Source of the DNA: an uncultured Gammaproteobacteria bacterium
Lineage (GTDB): Bacteria; Patescibacteriota; Microgenomatia; UBA8517
Assembly (NCBI GenBank): GCA_964599625.1
Contig: CAZRGC010000002.1
Location: 7,883-71,882 of the forward strand
Length of the DNA stretch: 64,000 nt
Direction: 5' to 3'
A program made the position numbers and the translations under genes. The notes beneath the pieces are model-generated. The model searched no databases, had not been told where the DNA came from, and was given only the letters and a program-made list of their open reading frames with translations. This document shows, in pieces, positions 16,812 through 64,000 of this stretch; position 1 is the first letter of the stretch, and each line of letters begins with the position of its first letter.

Positions 16812-16882
16812 GGGCTCGTAGTTAAATGGTATAACGTATCATTCGCATTGATATGTTGGCGGTTCGATTCCGCCCGAGTCCA
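16812..16882 (+). tRNA. tRNA-Ala (anticodon CGC), CCA not encoded
   Basis: Acceptor stem GGGCTCG/CGAGTCC with one G-U pair; anticodon stem TATCA/TGATA with loop TTCGCAT; T-arm GGCGG-TTCGATT-CCGCC. Confidence 0.7.
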
Positions 16883-16885
16883 CAA

Positions 16886-36931: not shown

Positions 36932-38590
36932 CTATATAGGAATAGTAACATAAAAAGTAGTTTTTCCTTTGGTGCTCTCAAAATAAATTTTCCCAATGTG
37001 TGCCTCAACTATTAGTTTGGATAGATAAAGACCTAGCCCTGCACCTTCGCCATCTACAATCTTTGCGTTAGAAGCTCTGGAAAACTTTTGAAACAAAATG
37101 TTTTTTTCGCTTTCAGGAATCCCGATTCCAAAATCGGTCACTGAAATTTGCAGGTTATTTCTCAATTTCGTAGTCGTCACGTAAACACTGCCTTTTTCGT
37201 TAGAATATTTAAATGCGTTGTTTATCAGATTTACAAGGAGTTGTCTAAACAATTTTTCATCAACAAATATTTTTTTCGGTGTTGCCTTGGCTATGTTTAA
37301 TTTAATGGTTAACTTTTTTGCTCTAAAACCTGTTTTAACTTCGTCAACAACACTATTAATTAGCGTTGTTGTTGTGACGCTGGTTTTGTCGGGTTTGATT
37401 TTTCCTGATTCCAATTTTGCTATTTGAAGCAGGATTGAAACCAGACCTGTCATTCTCTGGGTTGAGGCAAGTGTGTCCATAAGCAAGTCTCTCTGTTTCC
37501 GGTTTAGTTTTCCGGAAGAACCGGAAAGTAGAATTTGCGTAAACCATTTAATTGAGGTTATTGGAGTCCTTAATTGGTGGCTCACCAAGGAAACGAAATC
37601 GTGTCTTAGTTTTTCGATCGATTCAAGTTCCTCAATTGACCTGGATATTAACCATCTGCCCACATAAAAACCCACTCCGATAGACGCAAGAACGATCAAA
37701 ACTGAAAAGGCAATCACCTTATTAAAATATTGCTGGGAGCTTTTGTATATATCGTTTTTGGATTTTCCAACAGCCAAGTAAATACCCGGATTGTTGGCGC
37801 CAATTTTTTTGTATGAGTATATTCTTTCAACACCGTCTATTCCCGAGGACTGAACTGTTCCAAAGTCTTTTGTTAAACTCTTTACAAGAGGGTCTCCAGA
37901 GAATTCTTTTCCGATACAGTCGCAATTTAGGTCTGGATTTCTGGCCAGGATCACACCTTTTCCATCCAGAACCAAGACAACTATATTTTCATCTATCTCA
38001 ATAGATGCGAGAAAATCGGACAACCATTCGAGGCTGAGGGTTGCATAAACAACACCATGGCTGTTCTCCATGGGGTAGCCGAAGTTTATACTGGATTCAT
38101 TTGTAGTCCTGCTAACAACGTATTCTCCAACTGAAAAGTTATTTGTTTTTAATGTCTCTTGAAAAAACAGTCTGTCTGATAAGTTTATATTTGTAATAGG
38201 TGTGACTGCAGAACAAATAACGTCACCCTTCAAATTTGAAACACCAAAATTACCATATCTTTGGTATTTTGTTAATAAGTTGGACAAATAATTGTTACAT
38301 ATACTCTTACCAGATTTAACTTCTGGAGTTGCAGAAAGAGTTACGAGTAATTGTCTTGCACCTTCAATTATTTGTGTATTCTCAGATGCTATGGACTTGG
38401 CGATGTTGTCTAGTTTTTCAATCTCCAAGTCTTTTGAAATTTTAAGTTGATTTAAATTTATTCCTGCGATAAGGATAAAAACTGGAGTAAGAGTTGCAAT
38501 AGTCAAAAAAAGCACCCTTGCTCTAACTCGGTTGTACGACTTATGCATTTGTATCTTCGTCAAGTGAAATCGTAACTGAGAATCCTGCAT
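36932..38590 (-). CDS. sensor histidine kinase with Cache-like sensor (HK2)
   Basis: VSLVSHQLRTPITSIKWF HisKA; HATPase (TDFGIGIP ... GAGLGLYLSKLI); overlaps the G3 3' end by 50 nt. Confidence 0.85.
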   Translation of the reverse strand: MQDSQLRFHLTKIQMHKSYNRVRARVLFLTIATLTPVFILIAGINLNQLKISKDLEIEKLDNIAKSIASENTQIIEGARQLLVTLSATPEVKSGKSICNNYLSNLLTKYQRYGNFGVSNLKGDVICSAVTPITNINLSDRLFFQETLKTNNFSVGEYVVSRTTNESSINFGYPMENSHGVVYATLSLEWLSDFLASIEIDENIVVLVLDGKGVILARNPDLNCDCIGKEFSGDPLVKSLTKDFGTVQSSGIDGVERIYSYKKIGANNPGIYLAVGKSKNDIYKSSQQYFNKVIAFSVLIVLASIGVGFYVGRWLISRSIEELESIEKLRHDFVSLVSHQLRTPITSIKWFTQILLSGSSGKLNRKQRDLLMDTLASTQRMTGLVSILLQIAKLESGKIKPDKTSVTTTTLINSVVDEVKTGFRAKKLTIKLNIAKATPKKIFVDEKLFRQLLVNLINNAFKYSNEKGSVYVTTTKLRNNLQISVTDFGIGIPESEKNILFQKFSRASNAKIVDGEGAGLGLYLSKLIVEAHIGKIYFESTKGKTTFYVTIPI

Positions 38591-50024: not shown

Positions 50025-50453
50025 ATGACATACGTAAAGTTAAAATTGTTGGTAGTTTTTTTTGTTTTGTCTGTTCTTCTGGGAGGTCTTTGGGCTGACC
50101 ACTATCCACACCATGATTTTTATCCCTTTTTTTCCTGGAGTTTGTTTTCCAATAGTTCCAACAGTGACACCTCATATTTTATTAAACTAAAGACTTATGG
50201 CGGAGTGGCGGATAACACAGTATTGTATGCTGATAATGTTTCAAAATATGTGGAGGGTTATTTTTTGCCAGACTTTTATTGGGACGTTCAGGAGTTTGCG
50301 GTGAATCCACAGATTCAGAAAAAGATTGAAAGTTCGTTTGCCAAAAAGCCGGTGGATTACTATCTGATAAAAGCGGATTATGACGCGGTTGTTTTAAGGA
50401 CAACCGGTAATTTAATAGATACTCAAGTAGTTTCGGAACACACAGTAAAATGA
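50025..50453 (+). CDS. secreted or membrane-anchored hypothetical protein
   Basis: 142 aa, N-terminal hydrophobic segment. Confidence 0.4.
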   Translation: MTYVKLKLLVVFFVLSVLLGGLWADHYPHHDFYPFFSWSLFSNSSNSDTSYFIKLKTYGGVADNTVLYADNVSKYVEGYFLPDFYWDVQEFAVNPQIQKKIESSFAKKPVDYYLIKADYDAVVLRTTGNLIDTQVVSEHTVK

Positions 50454-51400
50454 AAAAAATATTTAGTTTGGATTTTATAGAAACAACGGCGAGGCAAAAA
50501 TCTTCTGTTATGAAGGCAGTCAACGCTGTTGCAACTTTCTACTTTTTTCAGATTGCTTTGGCGTTTATCAACTTGATGAAAATTGGTGCGGTGGACCCTG
50601 AGCGAAGCGGATTTTTGCCGATTTGGCCCATGAGCTGGGCGGGAAGTCTATCTTACTCATTCACTGCACAGATATTGGCTGTTTTGTATGCAGCTTCCGC
50701 ATTTGCGGCTGTGTTTTTTTGGCGAAAATGGTTTGTCAGACTTCTAGTTTTTTTGGCTTTCTGGCAAGTGCATGCACTGGACAGTTCTTTTGGCTATATT
50801 AACCATTTTTATTATTTGATTTTTTATGCATTGTTCATTTTTATTTTTCTTCCCGACACAAAAGAAGACACCGACCTGGATCATGATCAAGCCAAAAAAT
50901 TTTTGTTAGTATTTTGGGGGGTGATCGCAGCCGTGTTTGTGACATACACACTTTCTGGTTTTTGGAAAATATATTGGGGAATATTGGCCCAACTTGACGG
51001 GCGGCTGAGTTCTTTTTCTATGATGGCCTTTCCAGAGCACGTTGCCCGTAAAACAATTTTTGAGAGCAGGGAATATTTTTACAGCAATTTGGTAATTTCA
51101 AATCCCATTCTGGCATGGATTTCTTATCTGGGAACTATATATGTGGAATTTGCGGCTTTGTGGGTAGCGTTTAAACCTAATCTGCATAAGGTGTGGGCAT
51201 TTGTGTTCCTTTTTATGCATGTAGGAATTCTTTTGGTGATAGGAATACCGTTTTTTGAGTCAATTGCCGTTTTGTGTTTAATAGTTCTAAATTCGCCCTT
51301 TTCCGGAAAGGTAAATTTGGTGGAAATATTTTCGGATCTGCCGTTTTTTGGATTTGTATTCAAGAAGATATTTAAAATTGTCTTTCGCCACACTTTTTAA
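50450..51400 (+). CDS. polytopic membrane protein (possible HTTM-like; unverified)
   Basis: 316 aa, 8 or more TM; ATGA overlap with the upstream gene; adjacent to VKOR. Confidence 0.5.
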   Translation: MKKIFSLDFIETTARQKSSVMKAVNAVATFYFFQIALAFINLMKIGAVDPERSGFLPIWPMSWAGSLSYSFTAQILAVLYAASAFAAVFFWRKWFVRLLVFLAFWQVHALDSSFGYINHFYYLIFYALFIFIFLPDTKEDTDLDHDQAKKFLLVFWGVIAAVFVTYTLSGFWKIYWGILAQLDGRLSSFSMMAFPEHVARKTIFESREYFYSNLVISNPILAWISYLGTIYVEFAALWVAFKPNLHKVWAFVFLFMHVGILLVIGIPFFESIAVLCLIVLNSPFSGKVNLVEIFSDLPFFGFVFKKIFKIVFRHTF

Positions 51401-52155
51401 AAGAAAACTGACGTGTTGGGAAGCATTCCTCTGATTTTGCTTTTTTCTTGTTCGGGGAAGTTGTTTCCACCCAAAAATAAATATTGCAGATTCTGCAGAT
51501 TGCTTATGTTTGGTGGCAATGACTTTAGTTTGTTTCCGTGCAAATCCAATATGGAGAGATTTGTTAGTGAACCAAAGCTTTCTGGCAAAGATTTTATATT
51601 GTTGTTATACAGTAGAAGTGTTTTTAGATTTGCAAGGTTTCCAAGTGATTCGGGTAACGATGCTATTTTGTTTCCCCCAAGATCGAGAGTTTCCAGTGTT
51701 GTTATGTTTGATATCTCTTTTGGTAAAATTTTTACACCGCTATTTTTCAACCTTAGCGTTTTGAGTGAGGAAAGTTTGGATATTTCTTTTGGCGGGCTGC
51801 CAATGTGACTGTAATCAATGGACAAGACCTTTATCTGGTCACCAAGAACAAAAACTTGACTGGGAATTTTGTAGATATTGCTTACATAATCAAAGCCTAC
51901 ACCTGGTGCTGACACATTGTCGGTTGACTTAGTCATCAAGCTTAAGGGTAGGTCGGGGATTAAATATTTCCCGCTATACATTATTCCTGTTAGTGCAAAA
52001 ATAATTCCTGCAAAAATAGAAATGTAATCAAGATATTTGGGGTACAAACTTATATTTTTTATTGGAACTTCGGTATCTGTATCCGCTCTTTGCGGTTCTT
52101 TGGCAACTGGTCCTTGGGGTATTTCTGGTGATGGCTGTTGCGAAACTGGTTCCAC
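51397..52155 (-). CDS. membrane-anchored leucine-rich-repeat protein
   Basis: Tandem LRRs (LKTLRLKNSGVKILPKEISNITTLETLDLGGNKIASLPESLGNLANLKTLLLYNNNIKSLPESFGSLTNLSILDLHGNKLKSLP). Confidence 0.7.
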   Translation of the reverse strand: MEPVSQQPSPEIPQGPVAKEPQRADTDTEVPIKNISLYPKYLDYISIFAGIIFALTGIMYSGKYLIPDLPLSLMTKSTDNVSAPGVGFDYVSNIYKIPSQVFVLGDQIKVLSIDYSHIGSPPKEISKLSSLKTLRLKNSGVKILPKEISNITTLETLDLGGNKIASLPESLGNLANLKTLLLYNNNIKSLPESFGSLTNLSILDLHGNKLKSLPPNISNLQNLQYLFLGGNNFPEQEKSKIRGMLPNTSVFF

Positions 52156-52228: not shown

Positions 52229-52687
52229 ATGCAACTTACTCTTTTTGTAAGACCGGTATTGATGTTTGCTGTCACTTTTTTGATTTTTTTTGCACTGTTA
52301 ACTTCTATACCGTTCAACTATCTTGGTGTTTCCGACCAACCAAAAGGAACTGCAATAAGACTCAACTATCTGCGATTGTCTAAAAATGCCTTTGTTGTTG
52401 TGCAAACACTTGATCCAAGGACAAACCTTCCAGATAAGGGGGGTTACTTGAACAATCCTTCGCTTATGCCTAGAGGAATTTACAAGAATATTGACTTATT
52501 TCTTGCAAACTCAATGGAAAATGTTCCTGATAAAGTTGCGGTTACAATCTACGAGGACACAAACTCAAATGATGAATTCGATCAATATTACGACTCGGGC
52601 GATGATTCAATCGTGGTTGTTTCCGATAGTCCGCTTTTCTCCAAGATCAACGGTAAAATATTTAGAAAGATAATAACTTTAAAATGA
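52229..52687 (+). CDS. membrane-anchored hypothetical protein
   Basis: 152 aa; ATGA overlap with A-1. Confidence 0.4.
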   Translation: MQLTLFVRPVLMFAVTFLIFFALLTSIPFNYLGVSDQPKGTAIRLNYLRLSKNAFVVVQTLDPRTNLPDKGGYLNNPSLMPRGIYKNIDLFLANSMENVPDKVAVTIYEDTNSNDEFDQYYDSGDDSIVVVSDSPLFSKINGKIFRKIITLK

Positions 52688-53910
52688 AGTTTGTTAAAAA
52701 GATAAACCGAAAAATACTCATCTTGTCTTTTTTGATTGCATTGCCTGTTGTCTATTATTTTTTGTGGGCCCCTTATCGTGGCCAGGAATCAACCAGTCCG
52801 CTCAGAAACAAAGTCTTATCTGTTATCAAAAATTGCAAGAAAGAAGGAAACACGCTTAATTCAATGGACCAAAAATGCGTGTACAAAGCTTTCCACAATT
52901 TTGTTAACAGAGACAATGTGTCTCAGGTTGTTGCTGTGCTTATGGATATTTTTTCTAAGGCAGACAACTCCAGAGACCTGGGTACAAACAATTGTCACAT
53001 CCCCGCACACATCGCAGGCGAGATTGCATATCAGGACGGAGCTGACCTCAACGAGTTGTGGGATAAGTGTTCCAATAATTGCACTTTTGGCTGCTTGCAT
53101 GGAGGTTTTCAGGGACTTTTCAAAGAACAGGGATCTGCACTTTTGGACAACCTTGAGACAGCGTGCCATGTCTTGGAAGATCCAAATGATGCAGACCTTA
53201 GATCGTGTTGGCATATTGTGGGTCATGGATTAGCGGAATATTACGGAGCAGATATGAACTCCGCTATCAATAAATGCATGGGCTTACCCAACGAAAAGCA
53301 GCAAAGACATTGCATTATGGGTGTAAGAATGGAGTTTATTGTTGCCTCGGTTGACAACACAAGCCCAATGAAGCCTTTGAAGGATTATGAATACCTGGAC
53401 TTTTGTAAAAAATTTCCCTCAAAGTTTATAGAGGATTGTTATGCAGAAGCCGCCTATTATCAGATCAGAATAACTGATGATGTGAACCAAATGGTTGACA
53501 TATGCAAACTTGCTCCCAATATAGGGGATTCCAAAATAAGATGCGTTACAGGGTCCGGTTCTGTGTTTTTCTTTACCAATAAAGCCAACGCAGATGTTAT
53601 ACATAACTTTTGTGCAAGATACGGCGACAAGCATTATTCGAATGAATGTGCAATTGGGTCAGTTGACCTTGCTTCATCTGAGTGGGACCACTTGGAGACA
53701 GGGACCCAAGTATGCCTTCTTGCAAGCAAGGATTTTGTTGGGGAGTGCCTTGCGTTTTATGGAGGTAGGGTTCAGTTTTATAATGGGATGGCCAAGAGAA
53801 AAGAAATTTGCGGTATGCTTTCGCCGCAAGACAACAAAAGGTGTATGGGCAAACCCACAATGAAAAGAGACTATCTTATCCCTGTGACATTCGAAACTTG
53901 GGAAAGATAA
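52684..53910 (+). CDS. secreted Cys/His-rich repeat protein, family A paralog 1
   Basis: N-terminal TM anchor; motifs NCHIPAHIAGEIAY, CSNNCTFGCLHGGFQG, CWHIVGHGLAEYYG; more than 25 Cys. Confidence 0.65.
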   Translation: MKFVKKINRKILILSFLIALPVVYYFLWAPYRGQESTSPLRNKVLSVIKNCKKEGNTLNSMDQKCVYKAFHNFVNRDNVSQVVAVLMDIFSKADNSRDLGTNNCHIPAHIAGEIAYQDGADLNELWDKCSNNCTFGCLHGGFQGLFKEQGSALLDNLETACHVLEDPNDADLRSCWHIVGHGLAEYYGADMNSAINKCMGLPNEKQQRHCIMGVRMEFIVASVDNTSPMKPLKDYEYLDFCKKFPSKFIEDCYAEAAYYQIRITDDVNQMVDICKLAPNIGDSKIRCVTGSGSVFFFTNKANADVIHNFCARYGDKHYSNECAIGSVDLASSEWDHLETGTQVCLLASKDFVGECLAFYGGRVQFYNGMAKRKEICGMLSPQDNKRCMGKPTMKRDYLIPVTFETWER

Positions 53911-54067: not shown

Positions 54068-55174
54068 TTAAATCTTTTCGTTGTGTACCAAAACACCGTC
54101 GGCAAAATATGCGTGATATGGACCAGGAAGGGAAATGTTGTACACGGTATTGGTGCCGTCAACATGTTCTATCGAGCTTACGGTATATGCGTTTCCGTCT
54201 GAATTCAAAAGTGTATCACCAATACTTAAAGACTCAGCAGTTATCCAGGCATTTCTGCTCGGGGACCACATAAGATGGTTACCTGTAACTTTAATTGTAC
54301 CGTTTATATTAAGGTAGCCGCCCTGGACGTCTTTGTGCACCAGAAGCTTGCTTACAACTTGAGGAAATGTTCTTCTGTTGGCCAAATCGTAAGAGAGAAT
54401 TATGTCCCCAGTTTTAATGTCTTCAATTGACTTTGTGGAACCATCAGCAAGTGCTACTTGTGTACCGGGGAGGAAACAGCTTGAGTAGTACAGTTGAGAA
54501 TAGGAATATGCCGCATATGATGATTGACCATAACCATAATATGTGCCTTGACTGTAGCTATAGTAAATTCCTTGGCCATAGCCATAGTATGATGATTGAG
54601 AATAGCCATAGTAGGCACTTTGAGCATAAGCGTAATAAGTAGATTGTGAATATGAATAGCAAGTATTTGTAAGTGAGAACGACGACGGTCCGCAATCAAC
54701 TGTTGAATATGAGTCAAAAAGACCAAGTCTTCTGTAGCCCGAGGCTGTGGCCGTTCTAAAATTAGTCAATGTAAAATTATCAGCCCAACCGTCGGCGTCT
54801 GTATCCTGAAGATAAATGGGTGTTCCAGATTTAATTGCTCCTCCGGCTTGCACGGCAATGCTCCCGGCTCCCACAGTGAGAGAGCCCACTGCCAGTGTGC
54901 CTGTGTTATTGATTGTTATATTGCCACCAGTGGTAAGACTTAGTTGAGCAGTGTTTGTTGTAGATGCATCGGTAGCACCATTATCCACACCTTCAACAGT
55001 ACTTGCTGAAATAGAACAGGCGGTGGCCCAATTCAGAACATTTTTTGTTGAGGCGGTCATAGAAGAGTAGAAATTGCATGCGGCGCTAGCAGATTTTGCG
55101 GAAGCCAAAAGGAGTATTCCGGAGATCGCAAAACTTATAACTATTTTGAGCGTGTTATTTTGTGTCTTTTGCAT
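54068..55174 (-). CDS. secreted protein with Tyr-rich octapeptide repeats and C-terminal Hint (bacterial intein-like) domain
   Basis: Signal peptide; (S/G)xYY(G/A)Y(S/G)Q x6; Hint domain begins SCFLPGTQVALADG and ends GVLVHN (Cys1 ... His-Asn). Confidence 0.65.
   Translation of the reverse strand: MQKTQNNTLKIVISFAISGILLLASAKSASAACNFYSSMTASTKNVLNWATACSISASTVEGVDNGATDASTTNTAQLSLTTGGNITINNTGTLAVGSLTVGAGSIAVQAGGAIKSGTPIYLQDTDADGWADNFTLTNFRTATASGYRRLGLFDSYSTVDCGPSSFSLTNTCYSYSQSTYYAYAQSAYYGYSQSSYYGYGQGIYYSYSQGTYYGYGQSSYAAYSYSQLYYSSCFLPGTQVALADGSTKSIEDIKTGDIILSYDLANRRTFPQVVSKLLVHKDVQGGYLNINGTIKVTGNHLMWSPSRNAWITAESLSIGDTLLNSDGNAYTVSSIEHVDGTNTVYNISLPGPYHAYFADGVLVHNEKI
54482..54658. repeat. 24-bp tandem coding repeat (x6-7) encoding Tyr-rich octapeptides
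   Basis: Repeated ccatagtatgatgattgagaatag-like units within 54068..55174. Confidence 0.6.
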
Positions 55175-55185
55175 CTATTTTGTTT

Positions 55186-55761
55186 TTAAGATCTTGGCGC
55201 AACAGTCACACTAGAAGATTTTCCATTAGAAGCTTTAGCTGTAAGTGTAAGAATATATTTGTAATCGACAGTGTCTTGCAAAGTTACAGAACCGGACCAC
55301 ATACCATCTGTGGCACTGCCCGAACTTTGGGTAAAGCTCACATCAACATTTCCGTGATCTGTGGTTAAGGTTCCCGTAAGAGTTGAAATTGCGGATGTAA
55401 AAGAAGCTTTGACTGTAAGGTTGAGTGTCTGTCCTTTCTTGGCATCAAGTGGGTCGAAAATTACCTGGGTAATTGTTGGGCCGTCGTGTGCACCCATACC
55501 AACTTGGTAAGTTCCTTTGGCACCATTATCAGGTATAAGAGGAATGGGTGTCGGAGTGGGTGTTGCCTTTGGTTTTGGTGTAGGAGATTTGGCTATCTCA
55601 ATTTTCCCAATTTCCTTGGGAATGTCTGTATTGACGACAGGTTCTTGAATTGATGGGGTAATGCTTTTCCAAACAAAATAAAAAGCAACGGCAAGAACTA
55701 CAGCAACAAACAAAAGTATAACTACCACCGACATTCCTTTATTGTTTGTTATCTTTTTCAC
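55186..55761 (-). CDS. TM-anchored protein with Pro/Thr/Lys linker and beta-rich domain (hypothetical)
   Basis: 191 aa; TPKPKATPTPTPIP linker. Confidence 0.5.
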   Translation of the reverse strand: MKKITNNKGMSVVVILLFVAVVLAVAFYFVWKSITPSIQEPVVNTDIPKEIGKIEIAKSPTPKPKATPTPTPIPLIPDNGAKGTYQVGMGAHDGPTITQVIFDPLDAKKGQTLNLTVKASFTSAISTLTGTLTTDHGNVDVSFTQSSGSATDGMWSGSVTLQDTVDYKYILTLTAKASNGKSSSVTVAPRS

Positions 55762-55888: not shown

Positions 55889-57103
55889 TTGACGATGTAT
55901 AAAAAATTGTTTGTAAACATCTTGTTTGTGTTGGCTTCCGCACTGTTAATTTTTGGTGGAATAGTCGGGACCTCGGGCAGAATATTTTATCCAGAGCTTA
56001 ACTATTTTAAAAATAAAAACCTTGATTTTTCTGAGCTGCAAAAATATTTCAAAGAAGTTGCCAACAAAAAGGGAGCACTTTATGCGTTCAGCCTTCTTAA
56101 AATTGCAGATTTACCGTCAAATACCGATATACATTTGCTCGGGCACACCGTTGGTGACATTCTTTATAAACAAATGGGTGTGGATGGTATTCACTTTTGT
56201 AGTCAGGATTTTAGAAATTCATGTTCGCATTCCATTGTAATAGGCCTTTTTGTCGAAAAAGGGTTGGGAGCGCTTTCCGAAATTGCAGATGTCTGTAGGA
56301 GTGCACCCGGCGGATCAGGGGCATATGGAATGTGTTTTCATGGCCTCGGTCATGGAATATTGGCATATACGGGTTATGATATGGAAAAAGCTACAGAGCT
56401 TTGCGAAAAGACAGGAACTAAAGAAATGGGTTTTGTCGAAACCGCAGAGTGTGTTGGCGGTGTTGTGATGGAGATGACCGCCGGAGTCCACGATAAAGAT
56501 GCATGGATAAGGCAGAAAGACAAGTACCTCAAAATGGACAGCCCGCTTATGCCTTGCACAGAGAGTTTTATACCTGAAGTATCCAGGCCAAACTGTTTTC
56601 TTTATATAACCCCACACCTATGGGAAGTAGCTGGTGGCGATTTAGGTAATCCAACCGAAGATGTCTTTTCCCGGTCTTTTGCATATTGTGACAAGATGCC
56701 GGCGGGAATGAGTGTTTACAAAGCACTTTGCTATGGCGGTTTCGGAAAAGAGTTTGTGGGGCTTGCGCAGTCTAGAGACATTAGGGATATAGGTTCTATG
56801 AGCGACGCTGGACTGCAAAAAGTGTACAGGTGGTGCAAACTTGCACCAAATAAAAATGCAGTAAAATCCTGCCTGGATCAGGCAATAAATTCGTTGTACT
56901 GGGGTGGTGAAAACAAAACAGACGCTGTAATTAAGTTCTGTAGCTTTACAGACTCCAACGATAAGGAATCATGCTACAAACATGTAATCGGATCTTTCAG
57001 GTTTTATCAGAAAAATAATCTGCAAAACCTGAATGACAGTTGTGCCAAGTTGCCGGAACCATATTCATTTAAATGTTTGGACCCTGAGTTTGTCGAAGAT
57101 TGA
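55889..57103 (+). CDS. Cys/His-rich repeat protein, family A paralog 2
   Basis: LLGHTVGDILY, CSHSIVIGLF, CFHGLGHGILAY. Confidence 0.65.
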   Translation: MTMYKKLFVNILFVLASALLIFGGIVGTSGRIFYPELNYFKNKNLDFSELQKYFKEVANKKGALYAFSLLKIADLPSNTDIHLLGHTVGDILYKQMGVDGIHFCSQDFRNSCSHSIVIGLFVEKGLGALSEIADVCRSAPGGSGAYGMCFHGLGHGILAYTGYDMEKATELCEKTGTKEMGFVETAECVGGVVMEMTAGVHDKDAWIRQKDKYLKMDSPLMPCTESFIPEVSRPNCFLYITPHLWEVAGGDLGNPTEDVFSRSFAYCDKMPAGMSVYKALCYGGFGKEFVGLAQSRDIRDIGSMSDAGLQKVYRWCKLAPNKNAVKSCLDQAINSLYWGGENKTDAVIKFCSFTDSNDKESCYKHVIGSFRFYQKNNLQNLNDSCAKLPEPYSFKCLDPEFVED

Positions 57104-57105
57104 TA

Positions 57106-58278
57106 ATGAAAGTTAAAGTTTTATCCTTATTGATTGCAACGATTTTGGTTTGGTTTTTTTGGAATAATGACAGATTGCACCCAAACCTTAATTTAGGTAT
57201 ACAAAAATGCAAATCCGAAAAAAACCAAATTTGTTACAAGGATCTGATAATAAAGGTTTTTAATAAAACCGGGTTGGATGCGTCTTTGGACCTTGTAGAA
57301 AAAATCTATTCCATCGATTCTTCGTTTTCTTCTGTTTGTCACGATGTGGGTCATGTACTGGGGGCAGAAACTTATAAATTGTTTAAGTCGGGTAAAAATT
57401 TCAAAGTTACACCCAAAGTGGCATTTTGTTCATATGGGTTTTATCACGGATTTATGGAATATCTTGCGGCAGAAGGTGATGTTGAAAAAGCCAGAGATTT
57501 TTGCAGATACGTTGACGCTCAGGTGGCCAAAGTAACCCCTGATGCATCGCTTCAATGCTATCACGGTATTGGCCACGGATGGGTGAATATTCATGGAGAC
57601 AAAACACTTTTGGGTGACGATGTGGGAATAGTAAAAAAAGGTCTTTCACTTTGTGAAAAGGTTGCATCAAATGAGTCTGAATTAAGCAGATGTGCAACTG
57701 GGGTTTTTAATGGTATCGCTATTTTCTACGAGTCGGGTGAATATGACCTCCAAATCAAAAAAGACGATCCTATGTGGATTTGCAAAAGGGTTGATAAAAA
57801 ATTCGAAGATGCGTGTTATGTAAGTATGAATACAGTTTTGTTTGCAGTTACTGGGCAGGACTTTGCAAAATCAGCAAAGTACATTGAAGGAATAAAGGAC
57901 GATATGGTTGCATCCCATGCCATGATAAATTTGTCACTTCCTTTTAGTTTGGCGGAAATGGACAAGGTTGATCATTCTCGAAGCATTGCTGTATGCAGAG
58001 GTTTACAACCCAGGTTGACGGTCCCATGTTTGCAGGGTTTTGCCTTTGCGTACATGGAGCATGGTGAACCAGGGAAAGAATATCTTAAGGCAACCGGTTT
58101 TTGCAAAGATAATGGTTTGACTCCGGCAGAAGAAAAGGGTTGTTTGGGATACATTTATGGTTACATGGCACAGTGGTATCCTGCCGACAAGGCGTATGCA
58201 ATTTGCAAGGACGAAGGTGACTACTCCACATATTGTTCACAAAAGGTAGAAGAGGGTTTGGAAGGACTAGGAAAATGA
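57106..58278 (+). CDS. Cys/His-rich repeat protein, family A paralog 3
   Basis: ATG 3 nt after the A-2 stop (the ORF track starts at TTG 57100); CHDVGHVLG, CSYGFYHGFM, CYHGIGHGWVN. Confidence 0.65.
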   Translation: MKVKVLSLLIATILVWFFWNNDRLHPNLNLGIQKCKSEKNQICYKDLIIKVFNKTGLDASLDLVEKIYSIDSSFSSVCHDVGHVLGAETYKLFKSGKNFKVTPKVAFCSYGFYHGFMEYLAAEGDVEKARDFCRYVDAQVAKVTPDASLQCYHGIGHGWVNIHGDKTLLGDDVGIVKKGLSLCEKVASNESELSRCATGVFNGIAIFYESGEYDLQIKKDDPMWICKRVDKKFEDACYVSMNTVLFAVTGQDFAKSAKYIEGIKDDMVASHAMINLSLPFSLAEMDKVDHSRSIAVCRGLQPRLTVPCLQGFAFAYMEHGEPGKEYLKATGFCKDNGLTPAEEKGCLGYIYGYMAQWYPADKAYAICKDEGDYSTYCSQKVEEGLEGLGK

Positions 58279-59435
58279 AAAAGCTATATATTGCCGTCGG
58301 TTTAATTGTGTTCTCCTTTGTAATGTTTGTTGGCGATTTTCCGGTTCCAAAACCTTCTTTGGATAAGGTGGCTTTCTCAGTTATAACACTTTGTTCAGGC
58401 TCAAGCTTCAAACCAACTTGTTACGAAGAAGAAATACCAAAACTTATGGACCACCTTTCTATGGAGGATACGTTCGCCGTTACAGAATTAATACAAAGCC
58501 AGGTTACCGACTTTCCATATTGTCATGTTTTGGGGCATAAAGTCGCAAGTCTTGAGACAAAAAAAGATCCATCAAAATGGAAGAGTGTTATGGCAAGATG
58601 CCCCAGGGGAACTTGCTCCAATGGTTGTGTGCACGGAGCGTTCCAGGAAAGATATAAGTACGAAAACCTAAGTGCTCAGGACCTGTTGGCCGCCAAAAAA
58701 GACTTTGAGACTGTTTGCGAAAAAAGTGACTCTTTCGACCCTACAGGACTTGAGCAAGGAAGCTGTTACCATGCACTGGGCCATTTGATGATGTATTTAA
58801 CAAATGCTGACATAGAAGCTTCAGTTGATGCTTGCGACGAGGTTGCCAAAAAATCCGACGGGCGGGACTTTACAAATGTCTGTTATGCAGGCGCCTTTAT
58901 GCAGATTTTTCAGCCTTTGGATACTGACGATTTGGCGCTAGTCAAAAAGTTTGTGATAAGTCAGGATAATGCCTGGGGTTTTTGTTCAGGTTTTCCCGAT
59001 AAAAAAAGAAACTCTTGCTGGGAAGAATCTTGGCCACTCTTTCTTGAAAAAATTAGCATAGGGCGCGGGTTAATTGATTTTTGTTCGAAGTTGGGTAGTG
59101 GGGCGCAAAAGTGTACTAGAGACCTTTTATACATTATGCCAATTCAGTTCAGATTCAACCTTAATGCCATATCTAACTACTGTGCTAACTTACCAGGGGA
59201 TTACAGAGGAATGTGTTTTGCCATGACCGCCTCCAGAATTTTGGAGATTGACAGGAGAAACGGCGAGAAAGCTGTAAGTTTTTGTGTATCACTGGAGTCC
59301 AAAGATAAAGATGTCTGTTTGAATCAGGTTATAAAAGATGCGGAATTTGATTTCAACAAAAGTTCCCCGGAATATATCGGAATTTGTACAATTATGCCCG
59401 AACCCTGGAAAGGAAAATGTTTAAGATATGAATAA
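58275..59435 (+). CDS. Cys/His-rich repeat protein, family A paralog 4
   Basis: ATGA overlap with A-3; start MKKLYIAVGLIVF; CHVLGHKVAS, CSNGCVHGAFQ, CYHALGHLMMY. Confidence 0.65.
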   Translation: MKKLYIAVGLIVFSFVMFVGDFPVPKPSLDKVAFSVITLCSGSSFKPTCYEEEIPKLMDHLSMEDTFAVTELIQSQVTDFPYCHVLGHKVASLETKKDPSKWKSVMARCPRGTCSNGCVHGAFQERYKYENLSAQDLLAAKKDFETVCEKSDSFDPTGLEQGSCYHALGHLMMYLTNADIEASVDACDEVAKKSDGRDFTNVCYAGAFMQIFQPLDTDDLALVKKFVISQDNAWGFCSGFPDKKRNSCWEESWPLFLEKISIGRGLIDFCSKLGSGAQKCTRDLLYIMPIQFRFNLNAISNYCANLPGDYRGMCFAMTASRILEIDRRNGEKAVSFCVSLESKDKDVCLNQVIKDAEFDFNKSSPEYIGICTIMPEPWKGKCLRYE

Positions 59436-60921
59436 ATTAAACATTTTTTTGATTGTTTTGTTGGCCTTACTAATATTTACAGTCCCAAAACATATCCCCA
59501 AAAACCATACTATTGTTTATGACGATAAGGGATACTCTCCGTCAGAGATTACTATAAATAAGAACGATAAGGTAACATTTGCTGGCAAAAGCCAGCATGT
59601 TTTTTGGCCCGCCTCAAATCCGCACCCAAACCACACTAACTTTCCTGATTTTGATTCCAAAAAAGGGATAAAACCTCCTGAGACGTGGAGTTTTACATTC
59701 AGAAAAGCAGGTGTGGTTACTTATCATGATCATCTAGACCCTGCATACAGGGGGAAAATAAGCGTTAAGGAGACAAATGTATTTTTTTGGTTGTATGCAA
59801 AGACTGCCGATTTTTTAAGACTTAATTTTTCGAAGCACAATGATAAATATTTAGAAAATGTTGCAAAGCTTTGTACAGGAAACGAATGGGAAGATAGAAA
59901 AAATCTTATAGATTGCTGGAGTAAATACTTCTCCGGTTTGGAAAAAGACTTCGGTCCAAAAGAGGCATTGTCAGTTCTAAATACTCTTACCGGAAAAGGG
60001 AAAATTTCGTTATCTGATTGCCATAACTATGCGGACCAAATTGGATCAGATGCTTACTGGAGTGAGGTTTCTGGTAGAAAATTCAAAATAGATAAAAGTT
60101 TTGGAATTTGCAGCCATGGCTTCTTTCATGGCTATATGTTGGAGCATGTGAGTCATGGTCAGGATTTTGAAGCGTCTTTCAAACTATGCGACGAGACCTC
60201 CGGGTTAAGCGAATCAATGGCAAGGGAGTGCTATGTTGGTGCGGGTAATGGTCTTATGTATTACTACTGGAGTAACTTGGGGAATGATTTGCTTAAAATA
60301 GTTCAAAACTCAAAACTTATTTGCGCCAAGACTGGCGACAACAAAGACAACTGTATTTACGGGATTTATGGAGGAATGGAGCATCTATATCTCAAAATCC
60401 ATGGCTCAGATTTCTCAGTGAACCAAACCGACCCTTTTTTTGTTTGTATACGGGAAAGTGAAAATAAATATAAACCCTATTGTTACGAAAAGACTGTCAG
60501 ACCTCTCTTTTCTGATTTGGGATTCGATGTTGTAAAGATTGCATCTTGGATTTCAAAAATTGGAGATTTTGAAATAATGAAGGCCGAAGCAAAAAATATT
60601 GGCAACTTTGTGAGTCAGTTTTGGATCTATAAGTCGCAAGAGGACCTTTTAATGTCTATTGGGAAGTGCAAGGTTTTTACCGGGATCTTGTACAACTCTT
60701 GCGTTGAAGGTGTTTTTGAGGGTATTTTTTCAAATCTTCTTGCCTCCCAAAAAATAAGTGATTTTGATTGTGAGATGGATAGACTGACTGCAGTTGACAA
60801 ACAAATTTGCAAATCAAAGAAAATTGAATCTGAAAATTCAGTAAAAACTGATCTATTGCAAACCCAAAAACACCATTTTGTTTTGAGTTGGGTATACAAA
60901 AATATTATGACTTTTGTGTGA
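59428..60921 (+). CDS. TM-anchored cupredoxin-like domain plus Cys/His-rich repeat protein, family B paralog 1
   Basis: 8-nt overlap with A-4 (tATGAATAAAt); FWPASNPHPNHTNF ... YHDHLDPAYRGKISV; then DCHNYADQIG, ICSHGFFHGY, ECYVGAGNGLMYYYW. Confidence 0.7.
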   Translation: MNKLNIFLIVLLALLIFTVPKHIPKNHTIVYDDKGYSPSEITINKNDKVTFAGKSQHVFWPASNPHPNHTNFPDFDSKKGIKPPETWSFTFRKAGVVTYHDHLDPAYRGKISVKETNVFFWLYAKTADFLRLNFSKHNDKYLENVAKLCTGNEWEDRKNLIDCWSKYFSGLEKDFGPKEALSVLNTLTGKGKISLSDCHNYADQIGSDAYWSEVSGRKFKIDKSFGICSHGFFHGYMLEHVSHGQDFEASFKLCDETSGLSESMARECYVGAGNGLMYYYWSNLGNDLLKIVQNSKLICAKTGDNKDNCIYGIYGGMEHLYLKIHGSDFSVNQTDPFFVCIRESENKYKPYCYEKTVRPLFSDLGFDVVKIASWISKIGDFEIMKAEAKNIGNFVSQFWIYKSQEDLLMSIGKCKVFTGILYNSCVEGVFEGIFSNLLASQKISDFDCEMDRLTAVDKQICKSKKIESENSVKTDLLQTQKHHFVLSWVYKNIMTFV

Positions 60922-62362
60922 CGATGACCATATGAAGCGATTAATAAATAAAGTTATTTTAATAGTTGTTTTGCTTTTGGGTTTTGGGTTTTTATATCTA
61001 AACTTCATGACTGTAAGTGTAAAACTTACCAGCTCGGGGTTTGTGCCAATCTATACAACAATCCTCAGAGGACAGAGTGTTACTTTTTCTTCAGACATCA
61101 ATAAAACTTTTTGGCCGGCGAGCGACCCTCACCCTAACCATACAAATTTTTCTGCCTTTGACCCAAAAAAGGGAATAACACCCGGAGAAAGTTGGAAATT
61201 TAAGTTCGATAACTCCGGCACTTTTCAATACCATGATCATTTGGACCCGAGGTTTAGGGGGGTAATTACGGTTCTGGAAACCAACCCGCTCAGTTATTTT
61301 GCTAATACCTTAGCAAAAATTTATAAATCAAAATTTATCAAACTGGATGAAAATTACGCTAAAGATAAAATTAATTTGTGTAGCAAAAAACCAGGACGTG
61401 TTTACTACATGGAGTGTTGGTCTAATGTTTTTTCCGAACTAGTGAGGGACTGGGGTGCCGGCGATGCAATGAGGGTTTTGTCTGTGGTTAACAAAAACGC
61501 AAAAATGACGGTTGGCGACTGCCATCTGATTGCTGACCAAATCGGTACGGACGCATACTGGCAGTATATTTCAGGGAAGAAGTTTGATGAAGAGGTTGAC
61601 TTCTCACTTTGCGATTATGGCTTCTTTCATCATTTTATGTCTGAACATGTGAGTCATGGACAGAACTTCAAAGGGTCGGAGGAGTTTTGTAAATCATTAA
61701 AGGAAGGCCTTGTAGCCCAATGTTATCTCGGGATGGGTAATGGACTCTCATATTATTTTTGGAACTTGTTTCCAACAGACGCGGACAAGATAGTTAAAAA
61801 TTCACTGGAGGTGTGCGAAAAACTTTCGCAAAATAAAGATGAGTGTGTCTTTGGAGTTTATAGCGGTATTGACCATATTTATGAAGGTCAACACGGGTCG
61901 GAGTTGACAATTAACCTTTCTGATCCATTCTCGTTTTGCAGAAAACAAAAAAACGTTATTTATCAAAAATCTTGCTATGAAAGAATGGTTCCTTCTATGG
62001 CATATGCATTAAACAACGACGTAAGCGAGAGTGCGGGATATTTGGTTGGGAAAATATCAAAAATGCCACTATACGCACAGAAAGAGGCTTTGAGGCGTTT
62101 GGGAATTATGTTGTCGGAAGAAGAAGCTGTTAAGGAAAATTCAGACATTGTAAAGCCAATAGCTATTTGCAGGCGATTTTTTAACAAAATAAGGAATGAA
62201 TGCGAATGGGGTGTATTTTATAATATATTTGAAAACTCAAAACTGCCGTCAGATAAGTTTTACAGTGTTGATTGCGAGACTTTTGACCTGTCAAATAAGA
62301 TTGAATTAGAAAATTGCACTAATGCAGGAATTTCGGCATTTGGTAAACCTATAAATGAATAA
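60914..62362 (+). CDS. family B paralog 2
   Basis: FWPASDPHPNHTNF ... YHDHLDPRFRGVITV; DCHLIADQIG, CDYGFFHHFM, CYLGMGNGLSYYFW; true start may be ATG 60932. Confidence 0.7.
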   Translation: MCDDDHMKRLINKVILIVVLLLGFGFLYLNFMTVSVKLTSSGFVPIYTTILRGQSVTFSSDINKTFWPASDPHPNHTNFSAFDPKKGITPGESWKFKFDNSGTFQYHDHLDPRFRGVITVLETNPLSYFANTLAKIYKSKFIKLDENYAKDKINLCSKKPGRVYYMECWSNVFSELVRDWGAGDAMRVLSVVNKNAKMTVGDCHLIADQIGTDAYWQYISGKKFDEEVDFSLCDYGFFHHFMSEHVSHGQNFKGSEEFCKSLKEGLVAQCYLGMGNGLSYYFWNLFPTDADKIVKNSLEVCEKLSQNKDECVFGVYSGIDHIYEGQHGSELTINLSDPFSFCRKQKNVIYQKSCYERMVPSMAYALNNDVSESAGYLVGKISKMPLYAQKEALRRLGIMLSEEEAVKENSDIVKPIAICRRFFNKIRNECEWGVFYNIFENSKLPSDKFYSVDCETFDLSNKIELENCTNAGISAFGKPINE

Positions 62363-63632
62363 ATACAAAAAAATAGTGTTTGTTTTAGTTTTTTTTGCAT
62401 TATCTTTGGGCACTATAGTTGTATACCAGCATCTAAATAAAAGCAGAACCGCAAAAGATTTTGAAATTGTTTACACAAGTGATGGTTTTGTCCCACAAGA
62501 CATAGTGATAACAAAAGGAGACCGAGTAATATTTAAAAATAACTCCGACCGTCCCTTTTGGCCAGCAAGTGATCCTCATCCGCTGCATTCAATTTACCCA
62601 CAGTTTGATCCCAAGCGCCCAATAGAATCGGGTGAAAGTTGGGCTTTCATTTTTCCCAAAACTGGTGAATGGAAATTTCATGACCATTTGTTTCCTGTGA
62701 ACAGAGGCCTTGTAAATGTTTTAGACCCTAAAGATGTCAAAGATCCTGCAACGGCCCTTAAAAGAGATGAAGTGGAAAAACTTATCGAAAAAAAAGGAGT
62801 GGAAAATGCGTATAAGCATCTAAAAACTATTTATGATCCTGCAACCGCCGCCGCGCATTCCACTTTTCATTTGTTTGGTGAGGTCTTATATCAAAAATTT
62901 TCAGTAAATGGTATTGAATATTGTGACGGCTTTGCAGGTTTTGGGTGTTATCACGGACATTTTATAAAGGCGGTAGCTGAAAAGGGTGTGGAGATTGCAA
63001 TTGAGCTGGATAAGGTTTGTTTGGCCAAGTTTGGTGAAAAAGGTTTGGGTTGTCCACATGGGATAGGCCATGGTCTTTTGGAATATTTTGGGCACGGAAA
63101 AATAACTGAAGCACTTGAGATATGCAAAAAGCTTACTTGGAAAGGGCCCTTGTTTGGTTGTTCCGGCGGTGTGTTTATGGAAAACAACTTTCCCACAGTT
63201 TTTGAAAAAGATGGAGCAAGAAGAGTATCAACCAGAGAAGCTCACGGAAATCTGTTTCAACCTTGCATAGATGCGCCAGTTGGCTATAAACAAGCATGTT
63301 ATTTTGAACAAGCTTCTTGGTGGAACGATGTTTTGAAACGTGATTCCCAAAAAATCGGAAACTTTTGCAACTCGCTTAAAGACCAGAGTGAGAACGAGAG
63401 TTGTTTATTGGGCGCAGGAAATTCAATTGCAGAGATTTCAGAATATAATGCCAACGAAGTTGCTCAGTATTGCAAGTCTGTCCCGGGTAACAAATCGATA
63501 GCGCTGTGTAGAGCCGGTGCTGCTTGGGCTTTTTTTGCTAATCCTGCAAAGAGAGAAATCTCAAAAACATTGTGCCAGGGTTTGGGTAATTTCGAGGATT
63601 TGTGTTTGTCTAAGATGATGATTGTAAAATAG
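62355..63632 (+). CDS. family B paralog 3
   Basis: Same junction tATGAATAAAt; FWPASDPHPLHSIY ... FHDHLFPVNRGLVNV; CYHGHF, CPHGIGHGLLEY. Confidence 0.7.
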   Translation: MNKYKKIVFVLVFFALSLGTIVVYQHLNKSRTAKDFEIVYTSDGFVPQDIVITKGDRVIFKNNSDRPFWPASDPHPLHSIYPQFDPKRPIESGESWAFIFPKTGEWKFHDHLFPVNRGLVNVLDPKDVKDPATALKRDEVEKLIEKKGVENAYKHLKTIYDPATAAAHSTFHLFGEVLYQKFSVNGIEYCDGFAGFGCYHGHFIKAVAEKGVEIAIELDKVCLAKFGEKGLGCPHGIGHGLLEYFGHGKITEALEICKKLTWKGPLFGCSGGVFMENNFPTVFEKDGARRVSTREAHGNLFQPCIDAPVGYKQACYFEQASWWNDVLKRDSQKIGNFCNSLKDQSENESCLLGAGNSIAEISEYNANEVAQYCKSVPGNKSIALCRAGAAWAFFANPAKREISKTLCQGLGNFEDLCLSKMMIVK

Positions 63633-63633
63633 A

Positions 63634-64000
63634 ATGGCGATATCCTCCAAATATTCTTTTAAGTTGATTGCTGCTGTTTTGGTTATCTCGGCAGTCTTTG
63701 TTTTGTATAGAAAAGCTCCTGAAAACACAAGTGTTCAATATAATAAGGAAGGGTTTAGCCCCAAAATAGTTACGATAAACAAAGGAGATGTGGTTACATT
63801 TATAAATAGTTCCGGACTTTCGTTTTGGCCCGCAAGCGATCTTCATCCGTCACATCTTGTTTACCCCGAATTTGATAGCAAAAGCGCACTGCCTTCAGGA
63901 CAAAGTTGGTCATTTGAGTTTAACAAAATTGGAAAATGGGCGTTTCATGATCATCTGGATCCAACAAAAATTGGAACAGTTGTTGTTAAAGGGTTTCCGG
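63634..64000 (+). CDS. family B paralog 4 (5' part; runs off the window end)
   Basis: MAISSKYSFKLIAAVLVISAVFVLY TM; FWPASDLHPSHLVY ... FHDHLDPTKIGTVVVKG. Confidence 0.65.
   Translation, partial: MAISSKYSFKLIAAVLVISAVFVLYRKAPENTSVQYNKEGFSPKIVTINKGDVVTFINSSGLSFWPASDLHPSHLVYPEFDSKSALPSGQSWSFEFNKIGKWAFHDHLDPTKIGTVVVKGFP

Follow-up and report, generated by a model that had tools for sequence, protein, structure and literature searches.

How a protein scaffold tunes a copper site is classically illustrated by the cupredoxins. In amicyanin, the ligands of the type-1 copper are His53, Cys92, His95, and Met98. Cupredoxins without the Cys are already known, such as the early-nodulin-like proteins of plants. 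Domain 1 of the multicopper oxidases and the type-2 domain of nitrite reductase are also cupredoxins without a type-1 site, with two His pairs and an H-x-H motif flanking the Cys position, and these His coordinate copper outside the old pocket. In the engineered azurin C112D ('type 2' or 'type zero'), replacing the Cys thiolate with Asp reportedly produces a non-blue Cu(II) site. FtrB ('Cup-II', PDB 8VUK), which belongs to the Fe2+ transporter FtrABCD, is a natural Cys-less cupredoxin that binds Cu(II) via Asp and His; its D-x-x-H motif is accompanied by an E-x-E/E iron site, and its operon includes an Ftr1-type permease (PMC11966278). Here, we describe a module of approximately 90 amino acids (aa) encoded by four tandem genes (genes 1–4) at the end of a 64,000-nucleotide stretch of contig CAZRGC010000002.1 (hereafter, the window). 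The module is predicted to adopt the cupredoxin fold, but its type-1 ligand positions are occupied by other residues, and four His outside these positions are almost invariant throughout a large family in the Patescibacteria.

Fold, lost copper ligands, and family of the module

The AlphaFold2 model of the gene 1 module, for which the family alignment was used as input, was all-beta with eight strands (residues 2–6, 9–11, 14–18, 22–27, 35–37, 60–64, 69–75, and 78–88), a predicted local distance difference test score (pLDDT) of 94, and a predicted template modeling score of 0.84. When the model was compared with PDB structures using Foldseek, 360 matches were obtained at E ≤ 0.001, led by amicyanin and plastocyanin (template modeling [TM] score 0.82, root-mean-square deviation ~2 Å; E = 1.5e-7 for amicyanin). 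The model and its placement among the amicyanins and plastocyanins therefore indicate the Greek-key beta sandwich that a preliminary description of this DNA had proposed, and on this prediction the module is a true cupredoxin-fold domain. In sequence comparisons, a family profile built from 124 relatives matched amicyanin over the full length (E = 1.3e-7); the match of a single module to amicyanin was weak (E = 0.18). Because both the profile and the Foldseek E-values are this low, and because the motif described below is conserved in ~100% of 418 modules, the likeness between the module and amicyanin is not a chance resemblance. The Pfam family PF13473 (Cupredoxin_1) scored 18.7–26.2 bits for the four window copies, with the highest score for gene 1 (26.2), against a cut-off of 27, and precomputed PF13473 matches are on record for most relatives. 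The match to Cu-oxidase_3 in Pfam had E = 0.068.

The four proteins each start with a Lys/Arg-flanked hydrophobic N-terminal anchor, followed by the module. The presence of anchors in all four proteins suggests that the module is displayed outside the cell on the membrane, and some relatives of the module carry lipoprotein boxes. The four window modules had pairwise identities of 41–51% and contained no Cys, and all shared the pattern FWPAS-x-x-HP-x-H ... FD ... W-x-F-x-F ... G ... H-D-H-L-x-P ... G ... V. In the numbering of the open reading frame (ORF) of gene 1 (ORF1), the invariant residues are F59, W60, P61, A62, S63, H66, P67, H69, F75, and D76 in the N-terminal half and W87, F89, F91, G95, H100, D101, H102, L103, P105, G109, and V113 in the C-terminal half. 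In the module numbering used below, H40, H43, H74, D75, and H76 correspond to H66, H69, H100, D101, and H102, respectively. In ORF1, the loop between strands 7 and 8 has the sequence YHDHLDPAYRGKISV, which agrees to the letter with the preliminary description; the other three copies have YHDHLDPRFRGVITV, FHDHLFPVNRGLVNV, and FHDHLDPTKIGTVVV. The HMMER alignment places the amicyanin loop YHCTPHPFMRGKVVV opposite the module loop, with Cys92 facing the Asp.

Conservation was calculated from 418 distinct (non-identical) modules with ~45% identity. A36, D50, and H74 did not change in any of them, and H40, P41, H43, H76, S37, and G69 were conserved at 100% to two decimals, with one or two exceptions each; W34, P35, and F49 were conserved at 98–99%. 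Position 75 was Asp in 95% and Asn in 5% of the modules, Gly once, and Cys never. The modules with Asn75 were scattered among standalone and fused members in unrelated lineages, and all retained the four His. No Glu column was conserved, and D50 and D75 were the only acidic residues of the invariant type. When the amicyanin ligands were mapped onto these modules through the profile–amicyanin alignment, His53 corresponded to F33 (F 63%, H 15%, R 7%), Cys92 to D75 (D101 in ORF1), His95 to the variable position 78 (A/F/R/N and others), and Met98 to the variable position 81 (F/Y/L/K and others). Judged from this alignment, the entire type-1 copper ligand set is gone, beyond the Cys alone, and the module cannot serve as a plastocyanin-type electron carrier. 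The preliminary description had spoken of a replaced Cys ligand: the change from Cys to Asp is borne out by the alignment with Cys92, and the other three positions are lost as well. It had also assigned the conserved His to a non-blue, His-rich metal site on a cupredoxin scaffold or, failing that, to a redox-inactive binding module. The upstream HPxH and the four His are indeed kept in all four copies and in ~100% of the 418 relatives, but they do not lie at the canonical ligand positions.

The module belongs to a large cupredoxin subfamily that is almost exclusive to the Patescibacteria. When 1.84 billion cluster representatives were searched exhaustively with a hidden Markov model (HMM), 871 clusters matched at E ≤ 1e-30; at E ≤ 1e-10, the number rose to 5322, and the weaker matches included canonical Cys-containing multi-domain cupredoxins. 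With each species represented by a single genome, 223 encoded relatives were detected, almost all in Patescibacteria, in lineages including the Parcubacteria/Paceibacterota, Microgenomates, Doudna-, Andersen-, Kaiser-, Yanofsky-, and Nomurabacteria, among others. Most relatives are standalone proteins of 110–160 aa (~130 aa), and the module is thus not special to the fusions in which it had first been noticed; it is mainly a small protein automatically annotated with a cupredoxin domain. The labels were 'cupredoxin domain-containing protein' in NCBI and, for several members, 'plastocyanin' in the Joint Genome Institute (JGI) annotation. No curated NCBIfam model covers the family, and the NCBIfam plastocyanin and amicyanin models scored 15–18 bits against cut-offs of 88–110. 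Going by record titles (L003, L011, L015, L031, L063, L064, L077, and L078), several contigs with the typical Patescibacteria array described below would come from an 'uncultured Gammaproteobacteria bacterium', and many others from 'Candidatus Saccharibacteria'; the taxonomy in such titles of metagenome-assembled genome records looks unreliable.

Amicyanin and plastocyanin ('Cup-III') share the eight-strand Greek-key sandwich with the module and are its closest solved sequence relatives, and the loop between strands 7 and 8 has the same length in amicyanin and in the module. The module differs from both in the replacement of all four ligands, in seven extra residues near strand 4 (WPAS and HPxH), in its membrane anchor, and in its frequent fusion to an alpha-repeat domain of 300 aa. 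FtrB resembles the module in other respects: its Asp lies in or close to the place of the Cys, its Cu(II) site is non-blue, and it is located outside the cytoplasm (PMC11966278). Three residues after the Asp, where FtrB has its His, the module has A/F/R/N and others (position 78), and it has neither a conserved Glu nor a linked permease. Membership in Cup-II was rejected on the lack of D-x-x-H, the Glu triad, and an Ftr permease, and FtrA, the Ftr1-type permease (FtrC), and FtrD were all absent from the 25 most recurrent neighbor families at 78 module loci. The Cup-I domain of EfeO belongs to PF13473, the Pfam family that gave the module its best match, close to the threshold. Like the module, it is a cupredoxin of a non-classical type and has a second domain as fusion partner. 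EfeO has Cys at the position of the module's Asp, no PHPxH stretch, and an M75-like fusion partner. Membership in Cup-I was also rejected, given an hhalign probability of 9%, the retained Cys of EfeO, and the different partner domain.

The four histidines and the putative metal site

H74 and H76 flank the old Cys position at the end of strand 7, and H40 and H43 lie within W-P-A-S-x-x-H-P-x-H, a family-specific stretch after strand 4. From strand 3 to the FD motif, the family is ~7 residues longer than canonical cupredoxins, and DSSP assigned a short strand (P35–S37) in the model, followed by a long loop containing HPxH. The proximity of the His to one another was addressed by mean-field direct-coupling analysis of the 418 modules, in place of coordinates. 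Since the analysis recovered the hairpin of strands 7 and 8 (70–86 and 72–84), it picks up real contacts. The strongest coupled pairs were 5–33 and 33–81, in which positions 33 and 81, the canonical His and Met positions, are mostly aromatic; this coupling suggests that the old copper pocket has been filled by a small hydrophobic cluster. Furthermore, 6 of the 45 top couplings connected the HPxH loop (38–48) to the HDH turn (72–83), whereas 1.5 were expected (hypergeometric p = 0.003). These six pairs were D/N38–R/T82, 42–77, 42–78, 45–72, 46–79, and 45–79, and the residues at 42–78 are, for example, Leu with Phe, as seen in gene 3. They imply an antiparallel register (i + j ~119) that would place H43 opposite H76. 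In P0245 (275 aa), the first of two tandem modules is degenerate, with H43 changed to Asn and H76 to Glu, H40 and H74 kept, and an extra Cys pair inserted; this single, anecdotal case hints at a pairwise role of H43 and H76. In plastocyanin, Tyr83, the residue before the Cys, packs on the segment 5–8 residues past the N-terminal His ligand, and by analogy H74 may have the same relationship with H40. The co-variation suggests that the HPxH loop packs against the HDH turn, and taken together these indirect observations make a clustering of the four His likely.

We consider it probable that the module is an extracytoplasmic cupredoxin scaffold in which a one-metal site of three or four His (with Asp/Asn), at the same end of the sandwich, has taken the place of the blue site, and that its partners are the alpha-repeat and N-terminal-His proteins described below. 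In place of the lost type-1 site, the subfamily has gained two strictly conserved segments: H-P-x-H directly follows strand 4, and strand 7 ends with H-(D/N)-H. These two segments would pack together at the sandwich's 'northern' end, where the His3–4 (+Asp) site would bind one metal ion, with type-2-like Cu(II) as the first candidate and Zn(II) as the second. The module would work with two kinds of partner, namely the Cys-rich alpha-repeat proteins (disulfide type) encoded in its array and an Ig-like protein bearing a conserved mature N-terminal His. Its fusion or adjacency to both partner types suggests a surface system outside the cytoplasm that would handle metal or depend on it. Conceivable roles are the uptake or buffering of metal, a redox enzyme at the surface, and oxidative folding for the Cys-rich partners. 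Because Asp75 is exchanged for Asn in 5% of the modules with the His kept, the Asp is unlikely to be a key ligand and the His tetrad appears essential, which argues that Asp/Asn75 would play a supporting role beside it.

Several points weigh against this interpretation. The placement of H40 is contradictory between alignments: in the motif alignment with CueO domain 3, which is not significant (E = 0.21), H40 is equated with the type-1 His and would be the canonical N-terminal His shifted by the insertion, whereas the HMMER alignment and DSSP place it inside the insertion, after the canonical N-terminal His position. The tolerance of Asn at position 75 makes a ligand role of Asp75 doubtful. 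The co-variation signal is modest, the alignment holds 418 sequences, and the invariant His columns themselves carry no signal. The identity of the metal is a guess, and for many Patescibacteria, which live by anaerobic fermentation, little need for copper is known. In addition, the conserved neighbors at the 78 loci included no copper transporter, chaperone, or cuproenzyme of a known kind.

An alternative that we regard as unlikely, and which corresponds to the picture in the preliminary description, is that the site is derived from the type-1 site, with Asp in place of Cys and the metal held in the old pocket by the canonical N-terminal His (a shifted H40), Asp75, and one or two neighboring His. 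The Asp aligns exactly with Cys92 of amicyanin and Cys103 of EfeO, LHPxH aligns with LHPFH of CueO domain 3, the first His of which is a type-1 ligand, and P-H-x-x-H, when read directly, fits P-H53-N-V-H56 of amicyanin under another gap placement. Such a site would match the engineered azurin C112D, although this azurin keeps two canonical His, which the module lacks, and the Asp of the module can be Asn. A natural parallel exists in FtrB, in which the Asp is required for Cu(II) binding (PMC11966278). However, besides the lack of significance of the CueO alignment, HMMER and DSSP place F33/W34, not H40, at the canonical His, and the coupled, mostly aromatic positions 33 and 81 look as if they fill the old pocket. 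The exchange of Asp75 for Asn in scattered lineages and the lack of conservation at the His95 and Met98 equivalents also argue against it, as does the arrangement of H74 and H76, which flank residue 75 on the strand, so that both cannot share its pocket.

The module might also bind no metal and be a redox-inactive binding or scaffolding module, like the early-nodulin-like cupredoxins of plants, in which the His and Asp formed a hydrogen-bonded or pH-sensing patch that docks the alpha-repeat or Ig-like partner. This possibility, which we consider rather improbable, is in keeping with the loss of all canonical ligands, with the tight linkage to two partner types by fusion or adjacency and with the lack of metal-trafficking genes nearby. 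On the other hand, four invariant His arranged as H-x-H and H-x-x-H together with Asp50, across 418 sequences, are the typical signature of a metal site, and docking interfaces normally co-evolve and vary.

The His tetrad might instead be half of an interface copper center, comparable to the type-2 site of nitrite reductase or the trinuclear cluster of multicopper oxidases, that is completed by a second copy, by the alpha-repeat domain, or by the N-terminal-His protein and would yield an oxidase or reductase lacking a type-1 site; to this we assign very little likelihood. H-D-H sits where multicopper oxidases have H-C-H (domain 3) or H-S/P-H (domain 1) and nitrite reductase has H-C, motifs in which the flanking His bind the interface coppers, local alignments select exactly these motifs, tandem module–module proteins and fusions exist, and some alpha-repeat paralogs carry a conserved His cluster of their own. 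Nevertheless, the alignments of H-D-H with H-P-H of CueO domain 1 and of LHPxH with LHPFH of CueO domain 3 were not significant (hhalign E = 0.2–0.3), and homology of HPxH and HDH to multicopper oxidase motifs was not supported and is kept as a motif-level analogy. Relative to strand 4, HPxH is off the multicopper oxidase position, which puts the first His pair elsewhere than in the multicopper oxidases and nitrite reductase. Most members are single-domain proteins with one module per chain and no known partner that would give the other four His, and nothing points to more than one metal. Finally, an ordinary blue-copper electron carrier of the plastocyanin/amicyanin type is practically untenable and was refuted at the sequence level by the absence of Cys at the ligand position in 418 members, the loss of the three further ligands, and the far-sub-cut-off scores of the NCBIfam models, despite the JGI name of several members and the proposal of a single-cupredoxin 'pcy' of Patescibacteriota, which may or may not be this family, as the electron donor to NirK (PMC12931201).

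Partner proteins and gene neighborhood

The Cys-rich alpha-repeat domain (C domain) to which the module is often fused spans residues 121–425 in gene 3, where the AlphaFold model was all-alpha with ~17 helices (pLDDT 94.4). The best Foldseek match in PDB had E = 0.13 and a TM score of 0.33, among generic HEAT/TPR/PPR-like solenoids, and neither Pfam nor NCBIfam has a family for the domain, which is very common in Patescibacteria. Its ~300 aa form ~8 helical hairpins. Each hairpin has a Cys pair with the spacing C-x10-12-C (C-x7-C in one), and the six complete window paralogs share nine invariant Cys. These pairs are most simply read as disulfide staples in an extracytoplasmic protein. With such staples, the C domain would resemble the Sel1-like Cys-rich proteins of Helicobacter. 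A gene for a DsbA-like thioredoxin, which fits this reading, lies directly beside the array at five loci (L001 10632–11342 on the minus strand, L062 13420–14145, and three others). A His cluster (H-x3-H, C-x-H-G, and C-P-H-G-I-G-H-G) is conserved in the ortholog group of gene 3 but not in genes 1 and 2.

The neighborhood was surveyed at the 78 module loci, each from a different species. C-domain genes were found within 10 kb of the module at 61 of these loci, with a median of 5 and up to 11 genes, and the module was fused to a C domain at 45. The genes usually follow one order, in which several C-only genes are followed by fusions and often by a standalone module. At 35 loci, a gene was found for an Ig-like protein with the N-terminal His (L028 10249–10731, L001 9718–10203, and 33 others), a protein of ~170 aa with a C-terminal anchor that has no copy in the visible window. 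Its signal peptide ends in ...(A/G/T)|H-G-x-G-x-S-x-E, usually A-x-A|H, and since it stops just before the conserved His, the mature protein would begin with this His. At more than 20 loci, the Ig-like gene starts 0–9 nt past the standalone module gene, and in seven proteins (e.g., P0277 and P0304), the Ig-like domain is fused to the module. An N-terminal His is the hallmark of the histidine-brace copper proteins, and by analogy the Ig-like protein may be histidine-brace-like. No homology to histidine-brace families was found in Pfam, NCBIfam, PDB, or the large protein search: Pfam gave a weak PKD match, PDB gave filamin-like Ig repeats alone, NCBIfam gave one match far below the cut-off (a flagellar rod-modification model), and the large protein search gave hypothetical proteins alone.

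Other neighbors also recurred. HINT-domain surface proteins combining peptidoglycan-binding, Ig-like, and HINT domains were present at 20 related loci, and the ~140-aa single-transmembrane and 316-aa multi-transmembrane types found in the window each occurred beside arrays at 11 other loci. The recurrent multi-transmembrane neighbor had no Pfam match. A small anchored protein with the motif C ... H ... G-x-YGYGCD, perhaps a beta-sandwich domain, often stands at the start of the array (L001 1398–1934, L066 4473–4922, and 15 others), and no copy was seen in the window.

A more ambitious interpretation is that the four-His cupredoxin, the N-terminal-His Ig-like protein, and the 8–11 collinear, individually conserved Cys-rich alpha-repeat paralogs form a Patescibacteria-specific, copper-dependent surface machine, which we put forward as a long shot. 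It might serve at the host interface, for example as an oxidase or as a relay for electrons or metal, and its cupredoxin would carry an 'interface-type' (type-2/type-3-like) copper center alone, without a type-1 site. If so, the module would stand as the natural single-domain equivalent of the presumed ancestral building block of the multicopper oxidases.

The array in the window and its significance

Genes 1–4 are arranged in tandem on the plus strand in the ORF list, co-directional and slightly overlapping, and follow a series of C-only paralogs (Table 1). Fusion to the Cys/His repeat domain, as noted in the preliminary description, was confirmed for genes 1–3. Gene 4 is cut by the end of the window; on L081, a 99%-identical contig from another sample, it encodes at least 191 aa and reads into the Cys/His domain, and it is therefore a fusion too. 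Gene 2 counted from its TTG start has an odd N-terminus, MCDDDH. The ATG six codons later (60932), which gives MKRLINK..., is the more likely start, as it better matches the other copies.

The closest relative of the window array is that of L003 (3159–19716), in which eight paralogs are collinear with those in the window, gene for gene. Identities along the diagonal were 76, 68, 65, 66, 61, 51, 60, and 50%, whereas the off-diagonal identities were 21–44%. The first array member is thus 76% identical to the first member in L003, and gene 1 is 61% identical to its positional ortholog there. Full-length orthologs of gene 3 were found at 38–57% identity. This one-to-one collinearity indicates that the paralogs are ancient and that their order and individual members have been conserved, and by sequence they resemble subunits rather than recent copies. 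The comparison with L003 also suggests that the window array continues past 64000 with three further genes.

Table 1. Positions of the array genes, module features, and other genes in the window
Feature	Position	Strand	Description	Evidence
Gene 1	59428–60921	+	497 aa; anchor, cupredoxin-like module, Cys-rich alpha-repeat domain	ORF list, profile matches
Gene 1 module	59506–59778	+	residues 27–117	AlphaFold, Foldseek, alignments
Gene 1 His66/His69	59623–59634	+		
Gene 1 His100-Asp101-His102	59725–59733	+		
Gene 2	60914–62362	+	482 aa counted from TTG; architecture as gene 1	
Gene 2 module	61013–61285	+	FWPASDPHPNH ... YHDHLDP	
Gene 3	62355–63632	+	425 aa; architecture as gene 1; CPHGIGHG His cluster kept in C domain	
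Gene 3 module	62469–62741	+	FWPASDPHPLH ... FHDHLFP	
Gene 4	63634–64000, cut by window end	+	122 aa visible; anchor and module (63724–63996)	
Cys-rich alpha-repeat domain	59788–60918 (gene 1), 61289–62359 (gene 2), 62715–63629 (gene 3)	+		
Three upstream paralogs	55889–57103, 57100–58278, 58233–59435	+	alpha-repeat domain alone; same collinear array	
First array member	52684–53910	+	alpha-repeat-only paralog	76% identity to first L003 array member
Surface proteins interrupting the array	54068–55174, 55186–55761	−	first with pretoxin-HINT domain	
~140-aa single-transmembrane protein and 316-aa multi-transmembrane protein	50025–50450, 50450–51400		neither with Pfam match	
Typical Candidate Phyla Radiation genome content	12812–14122, 16812–16883, 32069–33697, 36932–38590, 51397–52155			

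The rest of the window encodes Rho, tRNA-Ala(CGC), two Cache-domain histidine kinases, an LRR protein, and SH3-domain proteins, together with many large ORFs (550–1160 aa) without a Pfam match. An Rfam scan of the window identified one tRNA and nothing else.

The module represents a widespread natural family, spread over hundreds to thousands of sequence clusters and most of the Patescibacteria lineages sampled, in which the thiolate site has been discarded and a set of four His has been fixed. We found no such site described; as far as full-text literature searches show, there is no description of the invariant four-His set, the WPAS insertion, or the three-component array. Because the 418 members have neither the Cys nor the type-1 ligands, the 'plastocyanin' labels on the family are wrong, and metabolic reconstructions of these ultra-small bacteria may count electron carriers that the sequence rules out. 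The module is one of three uncharacterized components that are joined by fusion and strict gene order in a highly conserved array, and as a soluble domain of 90 aa, it is an expressible entry point into the cell-surface biology of the Candidate Phyla Radiation.

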